DNA from: a virus
Length of the DNA: 43,021 nucleotides
UHGV virus genome: UHGV-0126275
Strand: one strand, 5' to 3'
Shown here piece by piece: positions 1,309-39,614 of this stretch. The position numbers and the translations under genes were made by a program. How positions within the stretch are numbered: position 1 is the first letter of the stretch; every line of letters starts with the position of its first letter. Below the pieces are notes generated by a model. That model was not told the DNA's origin. It was given only the letters and a program-made list of their open reading frames with translations, and did no database searches.

Positions 1309-1968
1309 CTATCCTTCCTGGACTTTGGTAAGCGTCAGATTTCCGCAGAACACTGCGCCGGTGTCGATGTACATCTGGTTTGCATACACTAGTGGGTGAT
1401 GTGCTGGCGTATGACCGAAGATGAACAAATCGGCACCGGTTATCTCCGAGACAATACCGTCCTGCGCGTCGCTAACCCGCTCACGATTCCATATCACCAT
1501 TTCTTCCGGTACTGGCTTATCGAATGCGTATTCGTTGTGGGGGTAGTCTGCGTGGCAGATGACGACCTTCTTATTGCCGGTAACCAGTTCGATAATCATC
1601 GGGAGGTTGGTAACCTTTGGCAGAAGGTATTTGAGTTGCACATCCTGCTCAGAATCAAGTTGGCGCCACCATCCACCGCCGTTTGACATCCAATGTCCGA
1701 AACTTCCGCCGTTGACCAGTGCATCCAGCATCATCTGCTCATGGTTGCCACGAACAGCTCGGAACCACGGCATAGTAATCAAATCCAGGCATTCGACGTT
1801 TTCAGCGCCGCGGTCAACAAGGTCACCAACGGAAATAAGCAAATCGCGCGCCGGGTCGAATGAAACTTTGTCGAGTTCGTTCATCAGCAGCGTGTAGCAC
1901 CCATGCAGATCGCCGACGACGAAGATATTGCACCAGTCAGCGCCATTGATGCGTTGATATAGGTTCAT
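1309..1968 (-). CDS. Ser/Thr protein phosphatase (lambda PPase-like metallophosphoesterase)
   Basis: Motifs GDLHG, GDLVDRG, GNHE in the translation; start taken at internal Met '[12 protein letters not shown]' because the longer ORF overlaps the upstream gene. Confidence 0.8.
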
Positions 1969-2615
1969 GCTGAACGCTCCCGCCCCTGGTTGTCTGTTGG
2001 TGACAGCGGAGCATTGCTGAATGCATTTGTTAATCCGCCAATAGCCAACGCGTATCCAGGGTGTAGTTGCACTGCCGTGTCTTCGCACTGATTACCCCAA
2101 ACATCGAAGCCATGAGACGTCTGGCGGGCGAACAGTTCAATGCGAGAAACATCGCCTAATAATTGCACAAGTTTTTCACGAACGATATCTGGCTTTCTTG
2201 AATGCTCAAGCCGCGGTGCGGTAAATGACTGAACGATCCCTGCATTAATGCGCGTAGGTAGTTTTCCCTTTACCGCAAACAGGCAATCTTCACTATTGGC
2301 GCGAGTCATGTGTCCCATACCCATAACCAGTTTATCTGGTTGTCGACTACCACATTTTATCCACGTGAAGCCCTTCATCGTCATCAGACGGAATCCCCAG
2401 GTTTCAACAACTTTTAGTGCTTCGAGTGGTTGTGTTGGCACCCACCACATGGCCAACAGACAGTTTTCATCGGCCAAATCCCACACAGGAAGGCGGCAGA
2501 TATCCAGCACACTCATAACCGGATATTTAAAACCGGCACCGCGATTACCATCTGCGGCTTTGTCCCGGTATACCCAGGGTGGATCTGCATAGATTAGTGT
2601 GTATTTCTTAGTCAT
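1965..2615 (-). CDS. MT-A70 family DNA N6-adenine methyltransferase
   Basis: 216-aa ORF beginning '[16 protein letters not shown]' (the DPPW motif characteristic of MT-A70/Dam-like phage methylases); 4-bp overlap with the downstream phosphatase gene. Confidence 0.8.
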
Positions 2616-2907
2616 AAACCACCCCGCAACATCCTATACCGCTATAGTCTCCACGGCGAAGGCCGTTACCTTTTGTGATACATTGGTCCCTGCGAACCGC
2701 GATCCTTGCACGCTCAACATCACCAGAAGCAACATCCATACACTGAAGCCAAAGGTGAGCGGCAATGCGGAACTGCCCTTTTTTCTCTCTTTCAATCGCG
2801 CGTTTTTCGATCTCTATCGCCGCAGGAGTAACGGCGACAATCTTTGACGGACTGCGCATTGAAACCTTGTTCATGTGATATTTTTCAAGTCGGCTTAACT
2901 TTCTCAC
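2608..2907 (-). CDS. Hypothetical protein; start uncertain (GTG at 2907 or ATG at 2859)
   Basis: ORF in operon context between the AlpA-like and methyltransferase genes; no recognisable motif. Confidence 0.4.
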   Translation of the reverse strand: MRKLSRLEKYHMNKVSMRSPSKIVAVTPAAIEIEKRAIEREKKGQFRIAAHLWLQCMDVASGDVERARIAVRRDQCITKGNGLRRGDYSGIGCCGVVYD

Positions 2908-3016: not shown

Positions 3017-3265
3017 TCATGCAGCGTTGCTCACAGGACGATATACACGTTGCTGAACAGGAGGCTTTTTACCCTGGAACTCTGCCGGGCTTGCTGCCTG
3101 ACGTTCATCAAGCCAACGCTCAACTTCGTCACGGTTCCATGCGCAGCGTTTGTCAGTGATATACCAGCGTTTAGGAAATTCACCTGCGCGCTCCATACGG
3201 TCGATAGTGCTCCATGACAGTGGCACCACCGCCAGGAGTTCCTTCTTACCTAATGCACCTTTCAT
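3017..3265 (-). CDS. AlpA/excisionase-like DNA-binding protein (candidate Xis or regulator)
   Basis: 82 aa; 'LLAVVPLSWSTIDRMERAGEFPKRWYITDKRCAWNRDEVERWL' matches the AlpA/Xis winged-helix pattern. Confidence 0.6.
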   Translation of the reverse strand: MKGALGKKELLAVVPLSWSTIDRMERAGEFPKRWYITDKRCAWNRDEVERWLDERQAASPAEFQGKKPPVQQRVYRPVSNAA

Positions 3266-5697: not shown

Positions 5698-5716
5698 AAC
5701 TTGTTACCTCGGTCTG

Positions 5717-5793
5717 TTACCGTTGAGGTAATAATTATGCTTATTTGGTTTGGTGTCAATAGATATGAGTTAAAAAAATTACCCGTAAGGTAA
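5717..5793. promoter_or_regulatory. Left operator pair: two copies of the palindrome TTACC-N5-GGTAA (5717..5731 and 5779..5793)
   Basis: TTACCgttgaGGTAA and TTACCcgtaaGGTAA bracket the candidate leftward promoter, one over the -10 and one just upstream of the -35. Confidence 0.6.
5731..5759 (-). promoter_or_regulatory. Candidate leftward early promoter (-35 TTGACA, 17-nt spacer, -10 AATTAT on the minus strand)
   Basis: Read from the reverse complement; flanked by palindromes at 5717..5731 and 5779..5793. Confidence 0.5.
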
Positions 5794-5804
5794 TCTATCT
5801 GGCA

Positions 5805-5830
5805 ATAAAAAAGCCGCCATGAGGCGGCTT
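5805..5830 (-). terminator. Rho-independent terminator after the repressor gene
   Basis: GCCGCC-ATGA-GGCGGC hairpin followed by a U-tract on the minus strand (A-tract on plus). Confidence 0.7.
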
Positions 5831-5850
5831 ACTTACTGAAAACTATAGTT

Positions 5851-6435
5851 TTATTGTTTGCTTTTTTCGTTCTGGTTGATGACAAATTCAATGTAACTTT
5901 CGATCTTTGCTTTCTCGGTTTCGGGTAACAATGCGTAGCGTGAGCGGTCATAGTTGATAGTCGCAGGGTCGTGCGGGTGAATCAGTAGTTCATATCCGTG
6001 ACGCCCGAATGCGGATGCAACATTCTCCAGAGTGGAAATGGAAACGCTGACCTCATTGTTTAACAGGCGGCTGATTGTCACCTGGGCGACGCCGGATGCG
6101 CGGTGAAGTTTTCCCTGTGTTGAAAGGTCGCGGCTTTCGCTCATCCAGCGTTCCAGGTTGTGAGCCGCCAGCTGACCTATATCGCTCGGGCCGACAGGCT
6201 GAAAACCCTCCTGAGAAAGCGAACGATCAATATCAAGCCAGTTACGGGGTTTATTGGCGGCAGCTTCAATTTTTCGTGCAACCTGGTCGCCGATAACCTT
6301 CTTGCCAAGAGCCCAGCGGTTTACCAGATTTGCCTGAGTTCCAAGTTTTTCTGCCATCCGCGTCTGAACACCATTGAATTCACGGTCGATCAAGTCGTTG
6401 AGATTTTGCCTGCGGACGTCCTGGATACTTTTCAT
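5851..6435 (-). CDS. Prophage repressor, tandem HTH (XRE-type) domains, no LexA-like peptidase S24 domain
   Basis: 194 aa; HTH-like segments 'VQTRMAEKLGTQANLVNRW' and 'LHRASGVAQVTISRLLNNE'; no Ser/Lys autocleavage domain; divergent from the Cro-like gene. Confidence 0.75.
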   Translation of the reverse strand: MKSIQDVRRQNLNDLIDREFNGVQTRMAEKLGTQANLVNRWALGKKVIGDQVARKIEAAANKPRNWLDIDRSLSQEGFQPVGPSDIGQLAAHNLERWMSESRDLSTQGKLHRASGVAQVTISRLLNNEVSVSISTLENVASAFGRHGYELLIHPHDPATINYDRSRYALLPETEKAKIESYIEFVINQNEKSKQ

Positions 6436-6490
6436 TTTCTGGAAAATCGCCTCATATATGAATCAGTAGATGATTCAATTTAAAGCAATA

Positions 6491-6553
6491 TTACCCAACA
6501 GGTAAATGCACCCCGTAGGTAACTATCCTTGATTTTTGTTACCTTATGGGTGA
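6491..6553. promoter_or_regulatory. Right operator pair in the repressor/cro divergent region (6491..6505 exact; 6539..6553 with one mismatch)
   Basis: TTACCcaacaGGTAA and TTACCttatgGGTGA; the second overlaps a candidate rightward promoter (TTGTTA-N17-TATTAT). Confidence 0.6.
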
Positions 6554-6589
6554 ATATTTATTATCTGAAATAAATATCAGGCAATAGCT

Positions 6590-6820
6590 ATGAGCGATAA
6601 CGGACATTTCGATTTCAAAAAGCACTGGCTTGCACTTACTCCGGATGAGCGTGAAGCCTTCGCACAGGAAGCCGGAACGACGAGTCACTATATCCAGACT
6701 CACTTAACAGGTAAGCGCAAAATGCCAGGTAAGGTATTGATGAATGGGCTTTTTAAAGCCTGTAAAACAAGACAATGGCTGCGCTCAAAAGCAGAACTGG
6801 CATACTTCTTCTACTCATGA
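6590..6820 (+). CDS. Cro-like / small DNA-binding early regulator
   Basis: 76-aa ORF divergent from the repressor gene, followed by a terminator; assignment is mainly positional. Confidence 0.5.
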   Translation: MSDNGHFDFKKHWLALTPDEREAFAQEAGTTSHYIQTHLTGKRKMPGKVLMNGLFKACKTRQWLRSKAELAYFFYS

Positions 6821-6842
6821 TATCCAGCTACAACCCTCTGTA

Positions 6843-6866
6843 GACCGCCACCCGGCGGTCTTTTCA
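6843..6866 (+). terminator. Rho-independent terminator (tR1-like) after the Cro-like gene
   Basis: GACCGCC-ACCC-GGCGGTC followed by TTTTCAT. Confidence 0.65.
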
Positions 6867-6970
6867 TATCTATTCGTACCTCAAAGGTAATAAAAAACCA
6901 AATCTGGTTGATCTTTTTTTTGTGTCAGCACAAAATGACCGTAATCCCAATACTAATAACAGGGCTTACC

Positions 6971-7186: not shown

Positions 7187-8020
7187 ATGAGCAGACATGC
7201 AACAGATTGGGCCTGGGAGACAGATCCAGGTAGCTCATCATTAAAGCTCATACTGCTCTCGATGGCTGACAGAGCCGATGAATATAACCTCTGCTACCCC
7301 AGCATAGAACGCCTCGTTAAAGACACTTGCCTGAATAAAAAAACCGTGCAGGCCGGGCTTATATCGCTCATGAAAATGGGGCTTATTTCAGATACCGGAG
7401 AGAGAAAGGGAGCGACAAAAAGAGTGCGGGTTTTCTCTCTTAATATAACCAAAAACGGGAACATTAAAGGCAACCGGGAGGGGGGCAATGAACCCGAAAA
7501 CGGTAATGTTACCGAAAACGGGAATATACCCAAAAACGGGATGTTGAATGATCCCAAAAACGGGATGTTGAATGATCCCAAAAACGGGATCCAGAACCAG
7601 TCATATAACCAGTCATTTAACCAAGAGAGGGAGAGCAGGACAAAAACCGGGGATTCTGTTCCTCATGACCCCGGCGCAAACAACGCCGTGATGAATAACT
7701 TTGTTCCTCCTGGTGGGCCAGGGCAATTAGGCAAATTTGTCATGCATGAACAATGGCAGCCATCAGATGACTTTCTTCGGAAAAGCTCATTGCAGGGAAT
7801 CTACCTGGACAGTCTGCCAACGGCACAGGAACTTGCAGAGTTCAGAATTTACTGGATGGCTGAGGGTAAGGCATACCATCAGGCACAGTGGGAGCAGAAG
7901 CTGGCAAGGCGCATCCAGTTCTGTAGACAGAAATCAGGTGAAGTCAGAAAGAGCCTTGACTGGCATAACACTGACTGGATAGATGAGGTGTGGGATGAAA
8001 TCAACTCCAGAACTTCTTAA
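7187..8020 (+). CDS. Replication initiator (lambda O-like), with origin iterons inside the coding sequence
   Basis: N-terminal winged-helix-like region; central low-complexity 'NGN...PKNGMLNDPKNGMLNDPKNG' encoded by the tandem DNA repeats; immediately upstream of a P-like gene. Confidence 0.65.
   Translation: MSRHATDWAWETDPGSSSLKLILLSMADRADEYNLCYPSIERLVKDTCLNKKTVQAGLISLMKMGLISDTGERKGATKRVRVFSLNITKNGNIKGNREGGNEPENGNVTENGNIPKNGMLNDPKNGMLNDPKNGIQNQSYNQSFNQERESRTKTGDSVPHDPGANNAVMNNFVPPGGPGQLGKFVMHEQWQPSDDFLRKSSLQGIYLDSLPTAQELAEFRIYWMAEGKAYHQAQWEQKLARRIQFCRQKSGEVRKSLDWHNTDWIDEVWDEINSRTS
7449..7620. repeat. Iteron array (candidate origin of replication): six CCNAAAACGGGA-type repeats, including two perfect 24-bp tandem units, then AACCAGTCAT x2
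   Basis: Repeat starts at 7449, 7493, 7511, 7529, 7553, 7577; 24-bp unit cccaaaaacgggatgttgaatgat at 7529..7552 and 7553..7576. Confidence 0.7.
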
Positions 8021-8814: not shown

Positions 8815-8891
8815 TTACCTGGCGGGTAATAAAATATTCTAAAATCTATTGATTTCGTGTCTTATGTGGTTTTTAATTACCTTAGAGGTAA
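8815..8891. promoter_or_regulatory. Promoter (TTGATT-N17-TTTAAT) bracketed by two TTACC-N5-GGTAA palindromes (8815..8829, 8877..8891)
   Basis: Same geometry as the left operator pair: distal site upstream of the -35, proximal site over the -10/start. Confidence 0.55.
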
Positions 8892-12987: not shown

Positions 12988-12997
12988 CATGGTACTA

Positions 12998-13012
12998 TTA
13001 CCACAACGGTAA
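12998..13012. promoter_or_regulatory. TTACC-N5-GGTAA palindrome upstream of terS
   Basis: TTACCacaacGGTAA, preceded by TACTAT (-10-like) and followed by an extra TTACC half-site. Confidence 0.5.
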
Positions 13013-13029
13013 CTATTACCACGGTGGTT

Positions 13030-13629
13030 ATGATGCCTGCTGAACCTAAAACCTATAAACGCAAATCAACGCAATTTAAGCCACTAACAGCAATGCAGGA
13101 GGCTTATTGCCAGTCATACATCAAAACGCCTGAAAACCAGACTCAGGCAGCGATTAACGCAGGATTCTCCCCAAATACAGCGGCAGTTAAAGCCAGTGTC
13201 ATGATGCGCGATGAACGCATTCAAAAACGGATTGCCGAGTTGATGGAGGAGCGCAACAAACGAATGCGCGTCAGTGCTGATTACGTTCTCATGCGCCTGG
13301 TGGAGATCGACCAGATGGACGTGATTGACATTCTCAACGACGATATGAGCATCAAGCCGGTCTCGGAATGGCCTAAGGTCTGGCGGCAGTACCTGACAGG
13401 TTTCGAACTGGCCGACATGTTCGAAGGCCGTGGAGACGAGAAAGAGCTGGTTGGCATCCTCAAAAAAATTAAATGGCCTGACAAGGTGAAGAACCTCGAA
13501 CTGATTGGTAAGCACGTCGACGTCAACGCATTCAAAGAACGCCTGGATGTTAATGTGAATGTGACAATTGCTGATCGCATAGCGGCAGCCAGGAAGAGAC
13601 TGAAAGAACGTCAGGATGGCAATCAGTGA
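13030..13629 (+). CDS. terS: Terminase small subunit
   Basis: 'LTAMQEAYCQSYIKTPENQTQAAINAGFSPNTAAVKA' HTH-type TerS N-terminus; sits directly upstream of terL with overlap; start chosen downstream of the terminator. Confidence 0.7.
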   Translation: MMPAEPKTYKRKSTQFKPLTAMQEAYCQSYIKTPENQTQAAINAGFSPNTAAVKASVMMRDERIQKRIAELMEERNKRMRVSADYVLMRLVEIDQMDVIDILNDDMSIKPVSEWPKVWRQYLTGFELADMFEGRGDEKELVGILKKIKWPDKVKNLELIGKHVDVNAFKERLDVNVNVTIADRIAAARKRLKERQDGNQ

Positions 13630-15759: not shown

Positions 15760-15836
15760 TGGCGTGGCATGCAGGATTCGAACCTGCGACCAACCGCTTA
15801 GAAGGCGGTTGCTCTGTCCAACTGAGCTAATGCCAC
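15760..15836 (-). tRNA. tRNA-Arg (anticodon UCU), phage-encoded, argU-like
   Basis: Reverse complement folds as a cloverleaf: acceptor GTGGCAT/ATGCCAC, D-arm GCTC-AGTTGGACA-GAGC, anticodon stem ACCGC/GCGGT with loop CTTCTAA, T-arm GCAGG-TTCGAAT-CCTGC, encoded CCA end. Confidence 0.9.
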
Positions 15837-16158: not shown

Positions 16159-16173
16159 TTACCTGAAAGGTAA
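16159..16173. promoter_or_regulatory. TTACC-N5-GGTAA palindrome upstream of the head-gene block
   Basis: TTACCtgaaaGGTAA, about 90 nt upstream of the ORF at 16264. Confidence 0.5.
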
Positions 16174-19163: not shown

Positions 19164-20156
19164 ATGACAATGGCTGTTAAAGGCTTAACTGCGCTGACGC
19201 TGGCTGACTGGGGTAAGCGCGTCGATCCAAACGGGAAAGTCGATAAGATTATCGAGCTTCTCGGTCAAACTAACCCGATCCTTCAGGATATGCCTTTTGT
19301 CGAAGGGAACCTTCCTACCGGACACCGAACCACCATTCGTTCTGGTTTACCTTCAGCTACCTGGCGTTTGCTGAACTATGGCGTACAGCCAAGCAAATCA
19401 ACCACAGTGCAGGTAACCGATTCCGTGGGCATGCTGGAAACCTATGCTGAAGTCGATAAGTCACTGGCTGATCTGAACGGCAATACCGCCGAATTCCGCC
19501 TTTCTGAAGACCGCGCATTTATTGAAGCGATGAATCAGCAGATGGCGCAGACGCTGTTTTATGGTGATTCCAGCGTTAACCCTCAGCAGTTTATGGGACT
19601 GTCCTCCCGCTATTCCAGCCTGTCTGCGGGTAATGCTCAGAACATCATTGATGCTGGTGGCACGGGTACAGATAACACCTCAATCTGGTTAGTGGTGTGG
19701 GGCGAAAACACCGTGCATGGCATCTTCCCGAAAGGGCAGAAGGCTGGCATCCAGATGGAAGATAAAGGCCAGGTGACACTGGAAGATGCTAATGGCGGCA
19801 AGTACGAAGGCTATCGCACCCATTACAAATGGGATAACGGACTTGCTCTGCGTGACTGGCGTTATGTTGTTCGCATTGCAAACATCGATGTCAGCAATAT
19901 TTCAGAACCATCCTCTGCCGCAAATATTGCGAAGTTGATGGTTAAAGCACTACATCGCATTCCAAACCGTGGCATGGGCCGCCCGGTGTTCTACATGAAC
20001 CGCACTGTAGGCCAGACTCTTGATCTGCAGTCTCTGGAGAAAACATCTCTGGCTATCAGCGTAAAAGAGACAGAAGGCGAGTGGTGGACTTCATTCCGTG
20101 GTGTACCAATCCGTGAAACTGATGCGATTCTGGAAACAGAAGCCCGCGTGGTGTAA
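19164..20156 (+). CDS. Major capsid protein
   Basis: 330 aa, position after the scaffold, followed by a stable hairpin. Confidence 0.75.
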   Translation: MTMAVKGLTALTLADWGKRVDPNGKVDKIIELLGQTNPILQDMPFVEGNLPTGHRTTIRSGLPSATWRLLNYGVQPSKSTTVQVTDSVGMLETYAEVDKSLADLNGNTAEFRLSEDRAFIEAMNQQMAQTLFYGDSSVNPQQFMGLSSRYSSLSAGNAQNIIDAGGTGTDNTSIWLVVWGENTVHGIFPKGQKAGIQMEDKGQVTLEDANGGKYEGYRTHYKWDNGLALRDWRYVVRIANIDVSNISEPSSAANIAKLMVKALHRIPNRGMGRPVFYMNRTVGQTLDLQSLEKTSLAISVKETEGEWWTSFRGVPIRETDAILETEARVV

Positions 20157-32627: not shown

Positions 32628-33263
32628 CTATTTTATTGGCAGCTTATGCTTTGAAATTATGGCCAATCTGTTTTGGAAGTTTTCCGCATCACCCCACAAC
32701 CAGGTTTCACCTTTCTCAAGTTCTTCCTCGTTATTCATCTCTATAAGTTCGCATGTCATCATGTCGTAACCATAGAGATGGAGGCCAAGTTCCAGTGCGT
32801 CATACATGCGAGCCTGCCAGAACGACATGCCTTCATGAGTCTGGTTGCGATCAGACACGATGATATCGTACCGTTCCAAGAGGTAGTTCATGAAGATGAT
32901 GCCAGCGAAATCATGAAGCACAGCACGATGCTTAGGCTTCTGGGTTCTCCATACCAATATCTGCGTGACAGGACGGCAGTTAAGATAGCTGTCAGGCTGG
33001 ATAATGACACGATTGTAATACACTACCTCTTCGGTGAGGTCATTTATCAATGACAGTTCAAAGTGCGCCTGTGGAATCTCGCCTTTCTTACGATCGTCTA
33101 CACGGACAACGCGGTATCCAGGAGCCAGAGAAACGCCTTTGACATCAGATGTGACATCGTTGCCGTTCACTAACTCTGAATACAGGGCGCGGTTGTCTGG
33201 AGTTTCGTTCAGATGAGCGAAAACCTCAGTTACCTTTGCCGGATTCAGCAGTTGTTGTGGCAT
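32628..33263 (-). CDS. Hypothetical protein (211 aa), stand-alone accessory gene
   Basis: ORF with GAGGTG RBS, own candidate promoter and terminator; no recognisable motif. Confidence 0.6.
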   Translation of the reverse strand: MPQQLLNPAKVTEVFAHLNETPDNRALYSELVNGNDVTSDVKGVSLAPGYRVVRVDDRKKGEIPQAHFELSLINDLTEEVVYYNRVIIQPDSYLNCRPVTQILVWRTQKPKHRAVLHDFAGIIFMNYLLERYDIIVSDRNQTHEGMSFWQARMYDALELGLHLYGYDMMTCELIEMNNEEELEKGETWLWGDAENFQNRLAIISKHKLPIK

Positions 33264-33303: not shown

Positions 33304-33318
33304 TTACCATTAGGGTAA
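33304..33318. promoter_or_regulatory. TTACC-N5-GGTAA palindrome in the leader of the 211-aa gene
   Basis: TTACCattagGGTAA. Confidence 0.5.
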
Positions 33319-33462
33319 ATGAACTATCCGAATGTTAAACGCCTTCGTACTCGTCAAATTTTCTCATGTGGGCTCCTCCTGTATCGGTGCCTAATCGCTA
33401 TGGATCACCCGTGAGGTAATAGTACGCTATTCACCCACAGTCTGCAATCTGTACAGAATTAT

Positions 33463-33491: not shown

Positions 33492-34184
33492 TCAGAAGAA
33501 CCCTGCTTTGTCGTTGATATACTCCGCGTGGGTCTGGATATCACGCAGGCATTTGCTCACACCGACGATGTAGCAGAACATGGTGGTCAGCTCCGCCGCC
33601 GCGCCCGATACGTCGTGCCCGTCGTCCTGTAACTGGTTCAGCAGATTCATCAGCAGTGAGTTCTCCGTCAGGCCGAGAACACCAGACGGCGAGTGAATCA
33701 GGCTGCGGTAGCCGGGCTTCAGCGGGGCGCTGTAGGTTTTGTTCTCTATCTTCATTGCCTGCATTACTGCTGACGCCGTGGCGTTGGCTACCTGGTCGGC
33801 AACCATCTTTATGCGTTCTTCCTGCGGGAGCGAGTTTTTAATGTAACTTCCGGTGCGGCGGATCTGAGGAAGAACCTCACCTGTAACCCATTCAAGAAAT
33901 CTGAATGCTCTCGTTCCCTCAGTCATTGCCTCTTTGCAACGCAGAATAAGGATGTAGAGACCTGATTCTGAAACGATGGATAGTTCTTGTATTCCACCAG
34001 GGGTCTGTATTGAATACAGCCCCTTTTTGTTCCAGCCTTTTTTATCAAGTTTTCTCGCTTGTGTAACATCAATATTCAAAGCATTGCACACATCTTTGGT
34101 GACAAACCAAGGTTCTCCGTCAATCATGAACATACGGATCTGGCAGGATGACTCAAAGGAAAAGATGGAAGGTTTGGTATTCAT
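33492..34184 (-). CDS. Bro-N domain protein (antirepressor-like) with C-terminal domain paralogous to the small protein at 35331..35588
   Basis: Start at 'MNTKPSIFSFESSCQIRMFMIDGEPWFVTKDVCNALNI' (Bro-N signature); AAGGTG RBS. Confidence 0.7.
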   Translation of the reverse strand: MNTKPSIFSFESSCQIRMFMIDGEPWFVTKDVCNALNIDVTQARKLDKKGWNKKGLYSIQTPGGIQELSIVSESGLYILILRCKEAMTEGTRAFRFLEWVTGEVLPQIRRTGSYIKNSLPQEERIKMVADQVANATASAVMQAMKIENKTYSAPLKPGYRSLIHSPSGVLGLTENSLLMNLLNQLQDDGHDVSGAAAELTTMFCYIVGVSKCLRDIQTHAEYINDKAGFF

Positions 34185-34451
34185 AGCGATCACCTTTGTA
34201 GTTAGGTTAATCACCACCGCTGAGACCAATCAGATGGTGGTGAACTGTGCAGAGTTGGTCTTACCGGCTACAAAGGAACCCGGCGCACCTTTCGGTGCCC
34301 CCACACAGCCCACCATAGAATAGGTGCGCTTTACACATAAAAAAACCGCTTATGCGGCATATGTGCCTCTGTAGTAATCCGGGAGACCAATCCCGGCACT
34401 GGATTTTGCCAGTGCCCGATTACTATGGCACAAGAGGAGTGCGATGTAAAT

Positions 34452-34559
34452 TTACCGCAAAGGTAATGATAAACGCGAAGAAATATTAAAATCAACCGTA
34501 TTTGGTTGATTGCGTTTAACGCTTGATCACCTGAAAGCAAGATATTACCTTTAAGGTAA
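34452..34559. promoter_or_regulatory. Two TTACC-N5-GGTAA palindromes (34452..34466, 34545..34559) in the divergent region between the Bro-N gene and the zinc-ribbon gene
   Basis: TTACCgcaaaGGTAA and TTACCtttaaGGTAA. Confidence 0.5.
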
Positions 34560-34579: not shown

Positions 34580-35308
34580 ATGGAAGTTTTCTGGATAGTT
34601 GTTGGTGTGGTTGCGGTGATTATTTACGTTATCAACCAGAACAAGACTAAGATCTCTGATCGTACGGTCGTTAATCATAACAAAACGATAAAGACCGAAG
34701 ATGGGGAGATAACGATTAATCGTACACAGGTGATAGAACACACCTCTACTCAGTTTCAAAAAACTGGAGGTAATGCGCCTAATATTTCCGCACCTCCTGC
34801 TTATGATAGTGCGGTAATCCAGACATATTATAAACAGCAGGAGTTAGCAAAAGAGAGGCAACTGATTCAGCCAAAGCCGTTTACAGCTGAGCTTCCACCT
34901 GGAGTGTCAACGCGTCCGGCATATCATGGAAGATTCCCTGGTGATGACATATCGTCTCAGTCATCTAAAAAAGCACCTCAGGCAGTATCAGAGCCAGCAA
35001 GAATACCTTCTGTATCGCCGCCAAAAGAAGAATCAGCTAACAGAGTTTCAAGTGGCCGCAAGCAGTGTTTGCGATGCAGAATAAACCTTCCATATGACAA
35101 ATTCCGGAAATCGTCAAAAAATCCAGATGGATTGACTAAGTGGTGTGCAAGGTGTCTCGATGGCCCAAAGAATACACGCCATATGAAGTGGTGCCCAATT
35201 TGTAATGTCCGCAGAAAACGGACCAGCTTTTACCCTAATAATCAAAATGCGGACGGCTTAATGGCATGGTGCAAAACGTGCTGGGACGAGCACAAAGCGA
35301 AACGATAG
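34580..35308 (+). CDS. Membrane-anchored protein with tandem C-terminal CxxC-x22-CxxC zinc ribbons
   Basis: N-terminal 'VFWIVVGVVAVIIYVI' TM helix; Pro/Ser-rich linker; 'CLRC...WCARC' and 'CPIC...WCKTC' repeats each containing 'DGL'. Confidence 0.65.
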   Translation: MEVFWIVVGVVAVIIYVINQNKTKISDRTVVNHNKTIKTEDGEITINRTQVIEHTSTQFQKTGGNAPNISAPPAYDSAVIQTYYKQQELAKERQLIQPKPFTAELPPGVSTRPAYHGRFPGDDISSQSSKKAPQAVSEPARIPSVSPPKEESANRVSSGRKQCLRCRINLPYDKFRKSSKNPDGLTKWCARCLDGPKNTRHMKWCPICNVRRKRTSFYPNNQNADGLMAWCKTCWDEHKAKR

Positions 35309-35330: not shown

Positions 35331-35588
35331 TTACCGGGTTTGTTTTCGTAATTGTTCGGCACAATAGTCGAGATGTGTTTGCAGATCCTGCATAGACATC
35401 TGTGAGCTGGTGACGTAGTTAATCAGTGCAGTCAGTTCGGCAAGTGGGCCATCGACATTAAATCCATCCTTATCGAGATCCCGGAGTAATTTCATCAAGT
35501 GCGATCCCTCCACCAGTGACCTGACGCCTCCCGGCGTGTGAATCCTTTCGGTAAATCCGTCTTCCAGTGGATAGTGATACTGCTGCAT
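35331..35588 (-). CDS. Small antirepressor-like protein (about 85 aa), LexA-box-controlled
   Basis: Start at 'MQQYHYP' (GGAGAAG RBS); homologous to the C-terminal domain of the Bro-N protein; LexA box 22 bp upstream. Confidence 0.6.
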   Translation of the reverse strand: MQQYHYPLEDGFTERIHTPGGVRSLVEGSHLMKLLRDLDKDGFNVDGPLAELTALINYVTSSQMSMQDLQTHLDYCAEQLRKQTR

Positions 35589-35609
35589 CTTATCTTCTCC
35601 ATGCAATAA

Positions 35610-35625
35610 CTGTATGTTTATACAG
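35610..35625. promoter_or_regulatory. LexA (SOS) box CTGT-N8-ACAG
   Basis: aaCTGTatgtttatACAGta; near-consensus with AT-rich spacer, just upstream of the small antirepressor-like gene. Confidence 0.7.
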
Positions 35626-35664
35626 TAACAAATAATTTGTTTGCTATCCAGCACGTTTTGCAAA

Positions 35665-35679
35665 TTACCCGAAAGGTAA
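35665..35679. promoter_or_regulatory. TTACC-N5-GGTAA palindrome upstream of the antirepressor-like gene
   Basis: aTTACCcgaaaGGTAAt. Confidence 0.5.
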
Positions 35680-35783
35680 TATCTATTGGTATTTATAGTC
35701 TTTTTATCCATATATGGTTTTTCAGGTAATAGAATAACCAGATATGCGGCGCAACGGGTGCTGCGACTATCTGGAGATTTAAC

Positions 35784-39209: not shown

Positions 39210-39614
39210 ATGTCTGCTCAAGTAACAAGTGAGCAATTAAATCAGTTGCTTAGTTTTGGTTCTCTTGCTGCAGTTATTGCAGGTGTCCCTCCGGAGGTTG
39301 CTTTAGGGGCTTTGGCTGGGGCGGTAATTTTTGTTACCTCTGCAGTAGAGTACCCCATCCGTCGCCGGGTGCTCCTGTCGATGCTCAGCTTTCTTTGCGG
39401 CCTTCTCTTTTACAAACCAGCAGCATCAATTCTTATCGGCATAGCCAGCCTGATCCCTACCATCACGCAGGACTCTTTTGAAAAAGGGATTGTTTTCTCT
39501 GCAGGCGCATTCGTGTCAGCAATTGTCGCTGTGCGTATTGGTATATGGCTCTATCACCGTTCCGATAATCCACGCGAGTTAATTCCGGGGAGAAAAGACG
39601 ATGGTAACGCATGA
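39210..39614 (+). CDS. Holin-like membrane protein
   Basis: 134 aa with several hydrophobic helices; directly upstream of the endolysin. Confidence 0.5.
   Translation: MSAQVTSEQLNQLLSFGSLAAVIAGVPPEVALGALAGAVIFVTSAVEYPIRRRVLLSMLSFLCGLLFYKPAASILIGIASLIPTITQDSFEKGIVFSAGAFVSAIVAVRIGIWLYHRSDNPRELIPGRKDDGNA

Follow-up and report, generated by a model that had tools for sequence, protein, structure and literature searches.

The repressor and antirepressor (Rep and Ant) of phage SPC32H were reportedly described by Kim & Ryu in 2013 and by Kim et al. in 2016, with structures in PDB entries 5D50 and 5D4Z. According to papers citing this structural work, DNA binding resides in the N-terminal domain of Rep, dimerisation in its middle domain, and both tetramerisation and Ant binding in its C-terminal domain (PMC9986798), and Rep binds palindromic sites as a tetramer that Ant breaks (PMC9638917). 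In the tetramer, the two partners of every DNA-binding pair come from different dimers (PMC9638917; PMC9986798). One of these papers remarks that the structural mechanism of Rep repression "has not been extensively characterized" (PMC9986798). In phage ZX5, overexpression of the repressor abolished free phage and reduced the transcripts for holin and endolysin by over 99.9%, overexpression of the antirepressor lowered rep mRNA, and overexpression of the ORF4 anti-repressor lowered lysogeny about 1000-fold; the ZX5 paper defines no operators (PMC9782041). The GenBank record of ε15 (AY150271.2), which carries seven features labelled "protein_bind: repressor / lysogeny", contains the motif TTACC-N5-GGTAA in all of them, at sites that include terS, the portal-proximal gene, the tailspike gene, O_L and the RuvC-gene region. 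This annotation may be purely bioinformatic. Operator features are absent from the GenBank records of phiV10, SPC32H, Tyrion and BUCT711, and a search of literature full text, outside which the primary ε15 and SPC32H papers lay, returned no operator sequence for the motif or for SPC32H.

Here we analyze a 43,021-nt stretch of DNA, virus genome UHGV-0126275 (hereafter, the window), which is a Uetakevirus (ε15/phiV10-like) prophage; its region around rep is 97–98% identical to phiV10, ZX5, TL-2011b, and others. The copies of TTACC-N5-GGTAA that it carries are very probably the operators of its SPC32H-type Rep (5851..6435). Biologically this amounts to a re-discovery: Rep and Ant have been crystallised as a complex, the ε15 sites are annotated, and the operator consensus for this Rep family was already public through the ε15 annotation.

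The prophage repressor

The rep gene (5851..6435, minus strand) encodes a 194-aa prophage repressor with an N-terminal HTH whose recognition helix reads NLVNRW, a middle domain of HTH_3 fold, and a C-terminal domain. The protein shares 99.5% identity with the repressors of phiV10 and ZX5 and matches SPC32H Rep over its full length (PDB 5D50_A; residues 1–190, phmmer E-value 3.5e-42). Aligned with SPC32H Rep, it shows 43% identity overall; NLVNRW and the C-terminal 35 residues are kept, whereas the middle domain and linker diverge. Its Pfam matches are to HTH_3/XRE-type HTH families only, and no Peptidase_S24 domain was found by Pfam. A reading of the DNA made before any database search (the sequence-only reading) had called this a tandem-HTH repressor, which is correct as a statement of fold; reading of DNA is expected of the first HTH only, the second being a dimerisation module in the solved homolog.

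A single palindrome is enriched between genes

Across the whole window, TTACC-N5-GGTAA occurs 11 times exactly (0.01 expected) and 15 times with at most one mismatch (0.81 expected). The comparison with a shuffled background that had been suggested as a check excludes chance, since neither count was reached in any of 100 shuffles. When all perfect 5-N(3–7)-5 palindromes were counted without bias, no other was enriched, the runner-up having 2 copies against 11. Sixteen sites with at most two mismatches were assigned; they are spread over nine intergenic regions and are all confined to non-coding DNA, which makes up 10.3% of the window, a placement that for the 11 exact copies has P ~1e-11. Pooling 70 exact sites gave the consensus A-TTACC-(AT-rich N5)-GGTAA-T, so that the operator consensus first proposed, TTACC-N5-GGTAA, was right and extends to A-TTACC-N5-GGTAA-T. 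The accompanying claim of four identical copies around rep is accurate for 5717..5731, 5779..5793, and 6491..6505, whereas the copy at 6539..6553 has one mismatch.

A motif with this abundance might have built up in the phage as a host-factor site, or as a target of restriction, modification or a methylase, and the phage does encode DNA methylases. We consider this very improbable, given that the coding 90% of the window contains no site, that the positions of the palindromes are fixed relative to promoter hexamers, that the motif accompanies the phage in five host genera, and that beyond position 39568, at the 3' end of the window including the presumed host flank, no copy with two or fewer mismatches is present.

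Sites on either side of rep

To the left of rep, an intrinsic terminator follows the gene (5811..5830, minus strand), detected by a promoter/terminator consensus scan and annotated in phiV10 as well. Beyond it lies the putative early-left promoter P_L, TTGACA-N17-AATTAT (5731..5759, minus strand), whose -35 is invariant in five genomes. This leftward promoter had been picked out in the sequence-only reading, and the scan confirmed it at 5759..5731 with 10/12 matches. Exact palindromes bracket it: O_L1 (5717..5731), which is invariant in five genomes, and O_L2 (5779..5793), which is spaced 62 bp from O_L1 and has its centre near position -62 relative to P_L. O_L1 and the P_L -10 share one base, the T that opens the palindrome and closes the hexamer, and O_L1 spans about -7 to +8. 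Where ε15 has a third O_L site, the window has only a lone half-site at 5704..5708. A terminator-like scan match at 5701..5734 was rejected as an artefact, produced by pairing of this extra TTACC at 5704 with the GGTAA of O_L1.

The divergent region on the other side of rep contains an O_R of three sites in every one of five aligned genomes. O_R-a (6491..6505) is an exact palindrome and overlaps a candidate leftward rep promoter, TTTACC-N17-TTAAAT (6506..6478, minus strand), that was read by eye; for a rep maintenance promoter the promoter consensus scan gave no match at its threshold. O_R-b (6508..6522, GCACCCCGTAGGTAA) is degenerate, GCACC-N5-GGTAA, with two mismatches. Since its counterparts in the aligned ε15, SPC32H, and BUCT711 sequences are perfect sites, the number of sites in the divergent region is three, not two. 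The palindromes previously reported there, 6491..6505 and 6539..6553, are both present, but this third copy between them had been missed. O_R-c (6539..6553, TTACCTTATGGGTGA) has its one mismatch in the right half-site (GGTGA); it occupies the spacer of P_R and the start of its -10, and is imperfect in all five aligned genomes. P_R itself, the presumed early-right promoter, reads TTGATT-N17-GAATAT (6529..6557, plus strand; -35 at 6529..6534, -10 at 6552..6557). TTGATT and the -10 positions A2 and T6 are invariant in the five-genome alignment, and the consensus scan offers an alternative match, TTGTTA-N17-TATTAT, at 6536..6564. Overlap of the palindromes with candidate promoters, as originally claimed, is thus borne out at P_L (5759..5731) and at P_R (6529..6557). 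The sole perfect O_R site overlaps the presumed rep promoter and not P_R, an odd arrangement for a maintenance repressor.

Downstream of P_R, a gene in the cro position (6590..6820, plus strand) encodes a 76-aa protein matching phrog_35, 'transcriptional repressor' (E-value 5.6e-13), and is followed by a terminator (6842..6861, plus strand; consensus scan). Directly past this terminator is a near-exact copy of the palindrome, GTACC-N5-GGTAA (6876..6890); in Tyrion (at 35365) and BUCT711 (at 6032), a one-mismatch copy separates the cro-position gene from the one after it.

Sites at other transcription units

Eight exact and three near-exact copies, from 6876 to 35679, lie outside the segment that the sequence-only reading covered. 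Two exact palindromes spaced 62 bp apart precede the DUF1064 gene. The upstream member (8815..8829) is centred near -62, and the other (8877..8891) starts with the final T in the -10 of a candidate promoter read from the sequence, TTGATT-N17-TTTAAT (8849..8877, plus strand); the promoter boxes and both sites are invariant in five genomes. At the terminase (late) genes, the control region (12990..13030) comprises an extended -10, TGgTACTAT (12990..12998, plus strand), an exact palindrome that begins at this -10 (12998..13012), and a one-mismatch copy (13016..13030) that abuts the terS ATG (13030). The same arrangement is found in Tyrion and in a second E. coli lineage. In the Serratia relative, a -10-like hexamer and the first site are kept and the second copy is absent, and ε15 has sites at 12 and 30, ahead of terS at 47. 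Another exact palindrome (16159..16173) lies upstream of a small gene preceding the portal gene and is syntenic with the annotated repressor site at 2932 in ε15 and with sites at 3175 in SPC32H, 3969 in Tyrion, and 34570 in BUCT711.

The remaining sites are towards the right of the prophage. An exact palindrome (33304..33318) lies upstream of a cargo gene (32628..33263, minus strand), with a one-mismatch copy nearby (33405..33419). A second (34452..34466) abuts the -35 of the promoter of an isrK/C4/Bro-N operon, with its centre near -44, and a third, 93 bp away from it (34545..34559), is upstream of the gene at 34580..35308 (plus strand). The last (35665..35679) separates ant from the tailspike gene, has its centre at about -62 relative to the inferred transcription start of ant, and is syntenic with the annotated repressor site of ε15 at 19895..19911.

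The palindromes had been taken to define the immunity switch. They do flank rep at the O_L and O_R positions, but they number about 16 and occur at nearly every transcription unit. The lambda-like picture drawn from the rep region was incomplete, in that the regulon would be genome-wide, the repressor a non-cleavable tetramer, and the switch thrown by antirepressors.

Conservation across the genus

TTACC-N5-GGTAA is the top palindrome in ε15, SPC32H, Enterobacter phage Tyrion, and Klebsiella phage BUCT711, with 9–11 exact copies in each, and likewise in three further prophages with a variant Rep helix, one of them from Serratia. The helix variants returned by a protein search are NLVSRW, NLINRW, and NLISRW, and their prophages keep this top palindrome. 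No Rep relative with a different operator was found by that search or by a scan of viral contigs, the latter yielding only 99–100% identical copies. The motif, the site positions, and the 62-bp pair spacing are conserved among relatives from E. coli, Salmonella, Enterobacter, Klebsiella, and Serratia. The window sites align in register with those of ε15, with the 17-bp form ATTACC-N5-GGTAAT at syntenic intergenic positions. In alignments of five syntenic intergenic regions, the half-sites and promoter boxes are invariant while the spacers and flanks vary; invariant half-sites amid variable spacers are typical phylogenetic footprints.

The same alignments bear on the idea that the palindromes act as RNA or single-stranded DNA hairpins, serving as terminators or processing sites, or as signals for replication or packaging. 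As inverted repeats they are perfect, and the consensus scan flagged 5701..5734 as terminator-like. However, the stems are just 5–7 bp with energies of -3.3 to -5.2 kcal/mol, no T-tract follows the palindromes, several of them are upstream of transcription starts, and genuine terminators adjoin them as separate elements. The stem never covaries, its sequence staying fixed from genus to genus next to a freely variable loop, which is the signature of recognition by a protein rather than of structure. With weak energies and no covariation, we rejected the hairpin or terminator reading, to which we assign only a very slight probability.

Operator geometry and a proposed mode of repression

Paired sites are 62 bp apart in 13 instances (63 bp once) in eight genomes, and 17–18 bp apart in eight instances. 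Three promoters share a base with a palindrome, their -10 ending in the T with which it starts: P_L (AATTAT|TACC), the DUF1064 promoter (TTTAAT|TACC), and the terS promoter (TGgTACTAT|TACC). As a consequence of the shared T, an operator in this position would cover about -7 to +8. P_L and the DUF1064 promoter have a partner site 62 bp upstream, centred near -62, and the terS promoter has its partner 18 bp downstream of the site at the -10. At the ant promoter, a candidate Rep site is found at about -62, and a LexA box occupies the position of the start-site operator. We infer from P_L and the DUF1064 promoter a recurring module of a start-site operator with a partner 62 bp upstream. This distance is close to six helical turns and would place both sites on the same helix face, so that one tetramer could hold them. 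For a single tetramer, a loop as short as 62 bp is tight.

The positions of the sites are also informative as to which protein reads them. The palindromes could chiefly serve the lytic regulator encoded at 6590..6820, or another phage factor such as an AlpA-like or PerC-like protein (for example, a late-gene activator), with Rep binding a subset of them or other sequences. That the PHROG family of the 6590..6820 product is annotated as a transcriptional repressor, and that many sites precede late operons (terS, portal, tailspike), would suit this explanation. Nevertheless, an operator that begins at the -10, as at P_L and the terS promoter, is positioned for repression and not for activation; the motif lies on both sides of rep, as is annotated for the ε15 repressor; and the Rep recognition helix is invariant alongside the motif. 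We therefore hold a different principal reader to be rather unlikely. Since Cro and the repressor use common operators in classical switches, this rival is for the most part compatible with binding by Rep, and a Cro-type protein could share or even dominate the palindromes.

Taking Rep as the probable reader, we propose that it binds each palindrome by a pair of N-terminal HTH domains, with NLVNRW as the recognition helix, and that, being a tetramer, it could hold two palindromes at once. Operators would lie at or just upstream of P_L, P_R, and the DUF1064, terminase, portal, tailspike, and two antirepressor operon promoters. With an operator at essentially every lytic transcription unit, Rep alone may silence the whole prophage directly. 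The fall in rep mRNA in ZX5 hints at positive autoregulation of rep, which the proposed Rep model does not explain.

More tentatively, these features may be joined in a single reading, which we put forward as a conjecture that could well prove wrong: Rep would be a genome-wide promoter clamp, its tetramer bridging the start-site operator and the partner 62 bp upstream, with the operator and recognition helix frozen genus-wide and DNA-level immunity shared as a result. Since a dozen or more operators must fit one recognition helix, neither operator nor helix would be free to change across the genus. The ant promoter, on the same reading, would reuse the -62 site, with the LexA box standing where the start-site operator is otherwise found. 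If this is true, then phages of the genus from E. coli, Salmonella, Enterobacter, Klebsiella, and Serratia share DNA-level immunity, and diversification is pushed onto the middle domain of Rep and onto the antirepressors. Neither the promoter-clamp nor the frozen-operator idea was found in the accessible literature.

Antirepressors and induction

The window encodes two candidate routes by which such repression could be lifted. The first is ant (35331..35588, minus strand), whose 85-aa product is an SPC32H-type antirepressor, 88% identical to SPC32H Ant and matching PDB 5D50_E with an E-value of 4.1e-47. A LexA box (CTGTATGTTTATACAG, 35610..35625) lies over the -10/+1 region of the ant promoter, and its core is invariant in SPC32H, ε15, and BUCT711. 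In the mechanism that we propose, DNA damage would remove LexA from this box, and the Ant then made would bind the C-terminal domains of Rep and take the tetramer off DNA.

The second is a module (33492..34415, minus strand) consisting of an isrK-like sRNA (34339..34415, minus strand), a C4 antisense RNA (34233..34320, minus strand), and a Bro-N protein of 245 aa (33492..34229, minus strand). Both RNAs were identified with Rfam, with scores of 74.7 and 78.6 bits. The protein has a Pfam Bro-N domain, matches phrog_130 and phrog_450, and ends in an SPC32H-Ant-like domain that is 42% identical to the small Ant. The ORF4 anti-repressor of ZX5 has, as described in the paper (PMC9782041), the same Bro-N architecture as the window's protein. 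A promoter for this operon is predicted at 34450..34422 (minus strand; TTTACA-N17-CATAGT), its -35 abutted by the 34452 palindrome. The 5' end of the Rfam isrK match (34415) is 7 nt past the operon -10 and coincides with the start that the promoter implies. The Ant-domain Bro-N protein, under isrK/C4 sRNA control, would provide a second induction input. Induction of Rep is thus expected to proceed via antirepressors and not by RecA-mediated cleavage.

These features correct the lambda-like picture: induction should rest on LexA- and sRNA-controlled antirepressors, and direct repression by Rep appears to keep the late genes off. The motif also provides a reliable map, readable from DNA alone, of the repressor regulon and promoters in phiV10-like prophages, which are found very frequently in E. 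coli, O157 included: over 600 sequences belong to the Rep cluster, and a relative is encoded by at least 300 viral contigs. Operators are annotated in no phiV10-lineage record that we inspected.

Comparison with known systems

SPC32H and ε15 belong to the same genus as the window's prophage (Uetakevirus), and SPC32H Rep is homologous to its Rep over the full length, with an identical recognition helix. SPC32H also has the 88% identical Ant and a conserved LexA box. An identical palindrome occurs at the syntenic O_L pair, O_R triple, terS, portal, ant/tailspike, and DUF1064/RuvC-gene pair. The differences are a middle domain and linker of Rep that diverge from those of SPC32H; an O_R-b that is degenerate in the window's lineage, against a perfect site in ε15 and SPC32H; and the cargo region at 32.6–35.3 kb, with four more sites and the second, sRNA-controlled antirepressor, which is absent from both phages.

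As in lambda and P22, the repressor gene is divergent from the early-right operon, operators are present at the early-left promoter too, and three palindromic, HTH-read operators span P_R and the presumed maintenance promoter in the divergent region. A lambda-type arrangement of a tripartite O_R (6491, 6508, 6539) and an O_L (5717, 5779) is thus found in the window. Unlike lambda CI, however, Rep is without an S24 autocleavage domain, and an antirepressor route is present instead; unlike the lambda and P22 repressors, Rep would be a preformed tetramer with DNA-binding domains paired in trans. Operators in lambda are confined to the immunity region, whereas the window has eleven more, from 6876 to 35679, late operons included.

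In this last respect the prophage resembles P1, where the single repressor C1 has a dozen or more scattered operators and controls many operons directly. The C4-governed antirepressor operon, with a repressor operator at its promoter, likewise recalls P1 immI (c4 antisense RNA, icd, ant). The P1 operators are asymmetric 17-mers, whereas the sites here are palindromes; Rep has no detected homology to C1, its family matches being to HTH_3/XRE and SPC32H Rep; and Ant of the window, unlike that of P1, carries an SPC32H-type Rep-binding domain. Finally, inactivation of an uncleaved repressor by a small LexA-repressed antirepressor is a trait shared with the Gifsy/Fels-type prophages (Lemire et al., 2011; PMC3121763), although the protein families are not the same.

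Antirepressor genes and their control

The small SPC32H-type antirepressor Ant (85 aa, preceded by a LexA box) is not the only protein with an Ant domain in the prophage. On the minus strand, a 245-aa Bro-N protein (33492..34229) is a fusion whose C-terminal ~80 residues are Ant-like, sharing 42% identity with the small Ant, and both proteins belong to phrog_450. The prophage therefore encodes two proteins with an Ant domain predicted to bind the repressor Rep, and these are probably under separate control, one by LexA and the other by small RNAs. Immediately 5' of the Bro-N antirepressor gene lies a tandem pair of RNAs (34233..34415, minus strand) matched in Rfam. One is the Hfq-binding sRNA isrK (34339..34415, minus strand; 74.7 bits), the other a C4 antisense RNA of the P1 type (34233..34320, minus strand; 78.6 bits). 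The 5' end of isrK coincides with the start implied by a promoter-like TTTACA-N17-CATAGT.

Compared by sequence with SPC32H, Ant of this prophage is 88% identical, whereas Rep is just 43% identical. In the Rep alignment, conserved positions cluster in the recognition helix and in the C-terminal ~35 residues, and divergence is strong in the linker and the middle domain.

The region between ant and the tailspike gene (35589..35783) contains an additional invariant block, CATATA.GGTTT...GGTAATAGAAT. From this block a candidate promoter for the tailspike gene can be read, TCCATA-N17-TAGAAT (35707..35735), with a single GGTAA half-site immediately 5' of its -10.

Early-left region, cargo genes and initiator repeats

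A lone TTACC half-site (5704..5708) lies 13 bp from O_L1, the exact palindrome at the early-left promoter; ε15, SPC32H and BUCT711 instead have a full third O_L palindrome 75-76 bp past O_L1. A terminator-like call at 5701..5734 is spurious, produced by this half-site.

Two genes of the early-left operon (both minus strand) encode a calcineurin-like metallophosphoesterase (1309..2088) and a homolog of PerC-family transcriptional activators (2608..2907); the PerC-like protein may serve as a late activator or an auxiliary one. Between the terminase and portal gene blocks, the intergenic cargo region carries a tRNA-Arg with anticodon TCT (15760..15836, minus strand); SPC32H and ZX5 likewise have one tRNA each.

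Within the replication-initiator gene (7187..8020), tandem repeats span 7492..7623. The central array (7529..7590) comprises 2.6 copies of a 24-bp unit at 100% identity and is flanked by 18-bp and 12-bp repeats. These look like origin iterons lying within the initiator gene, as iterons are likewise embedded in lambda O.
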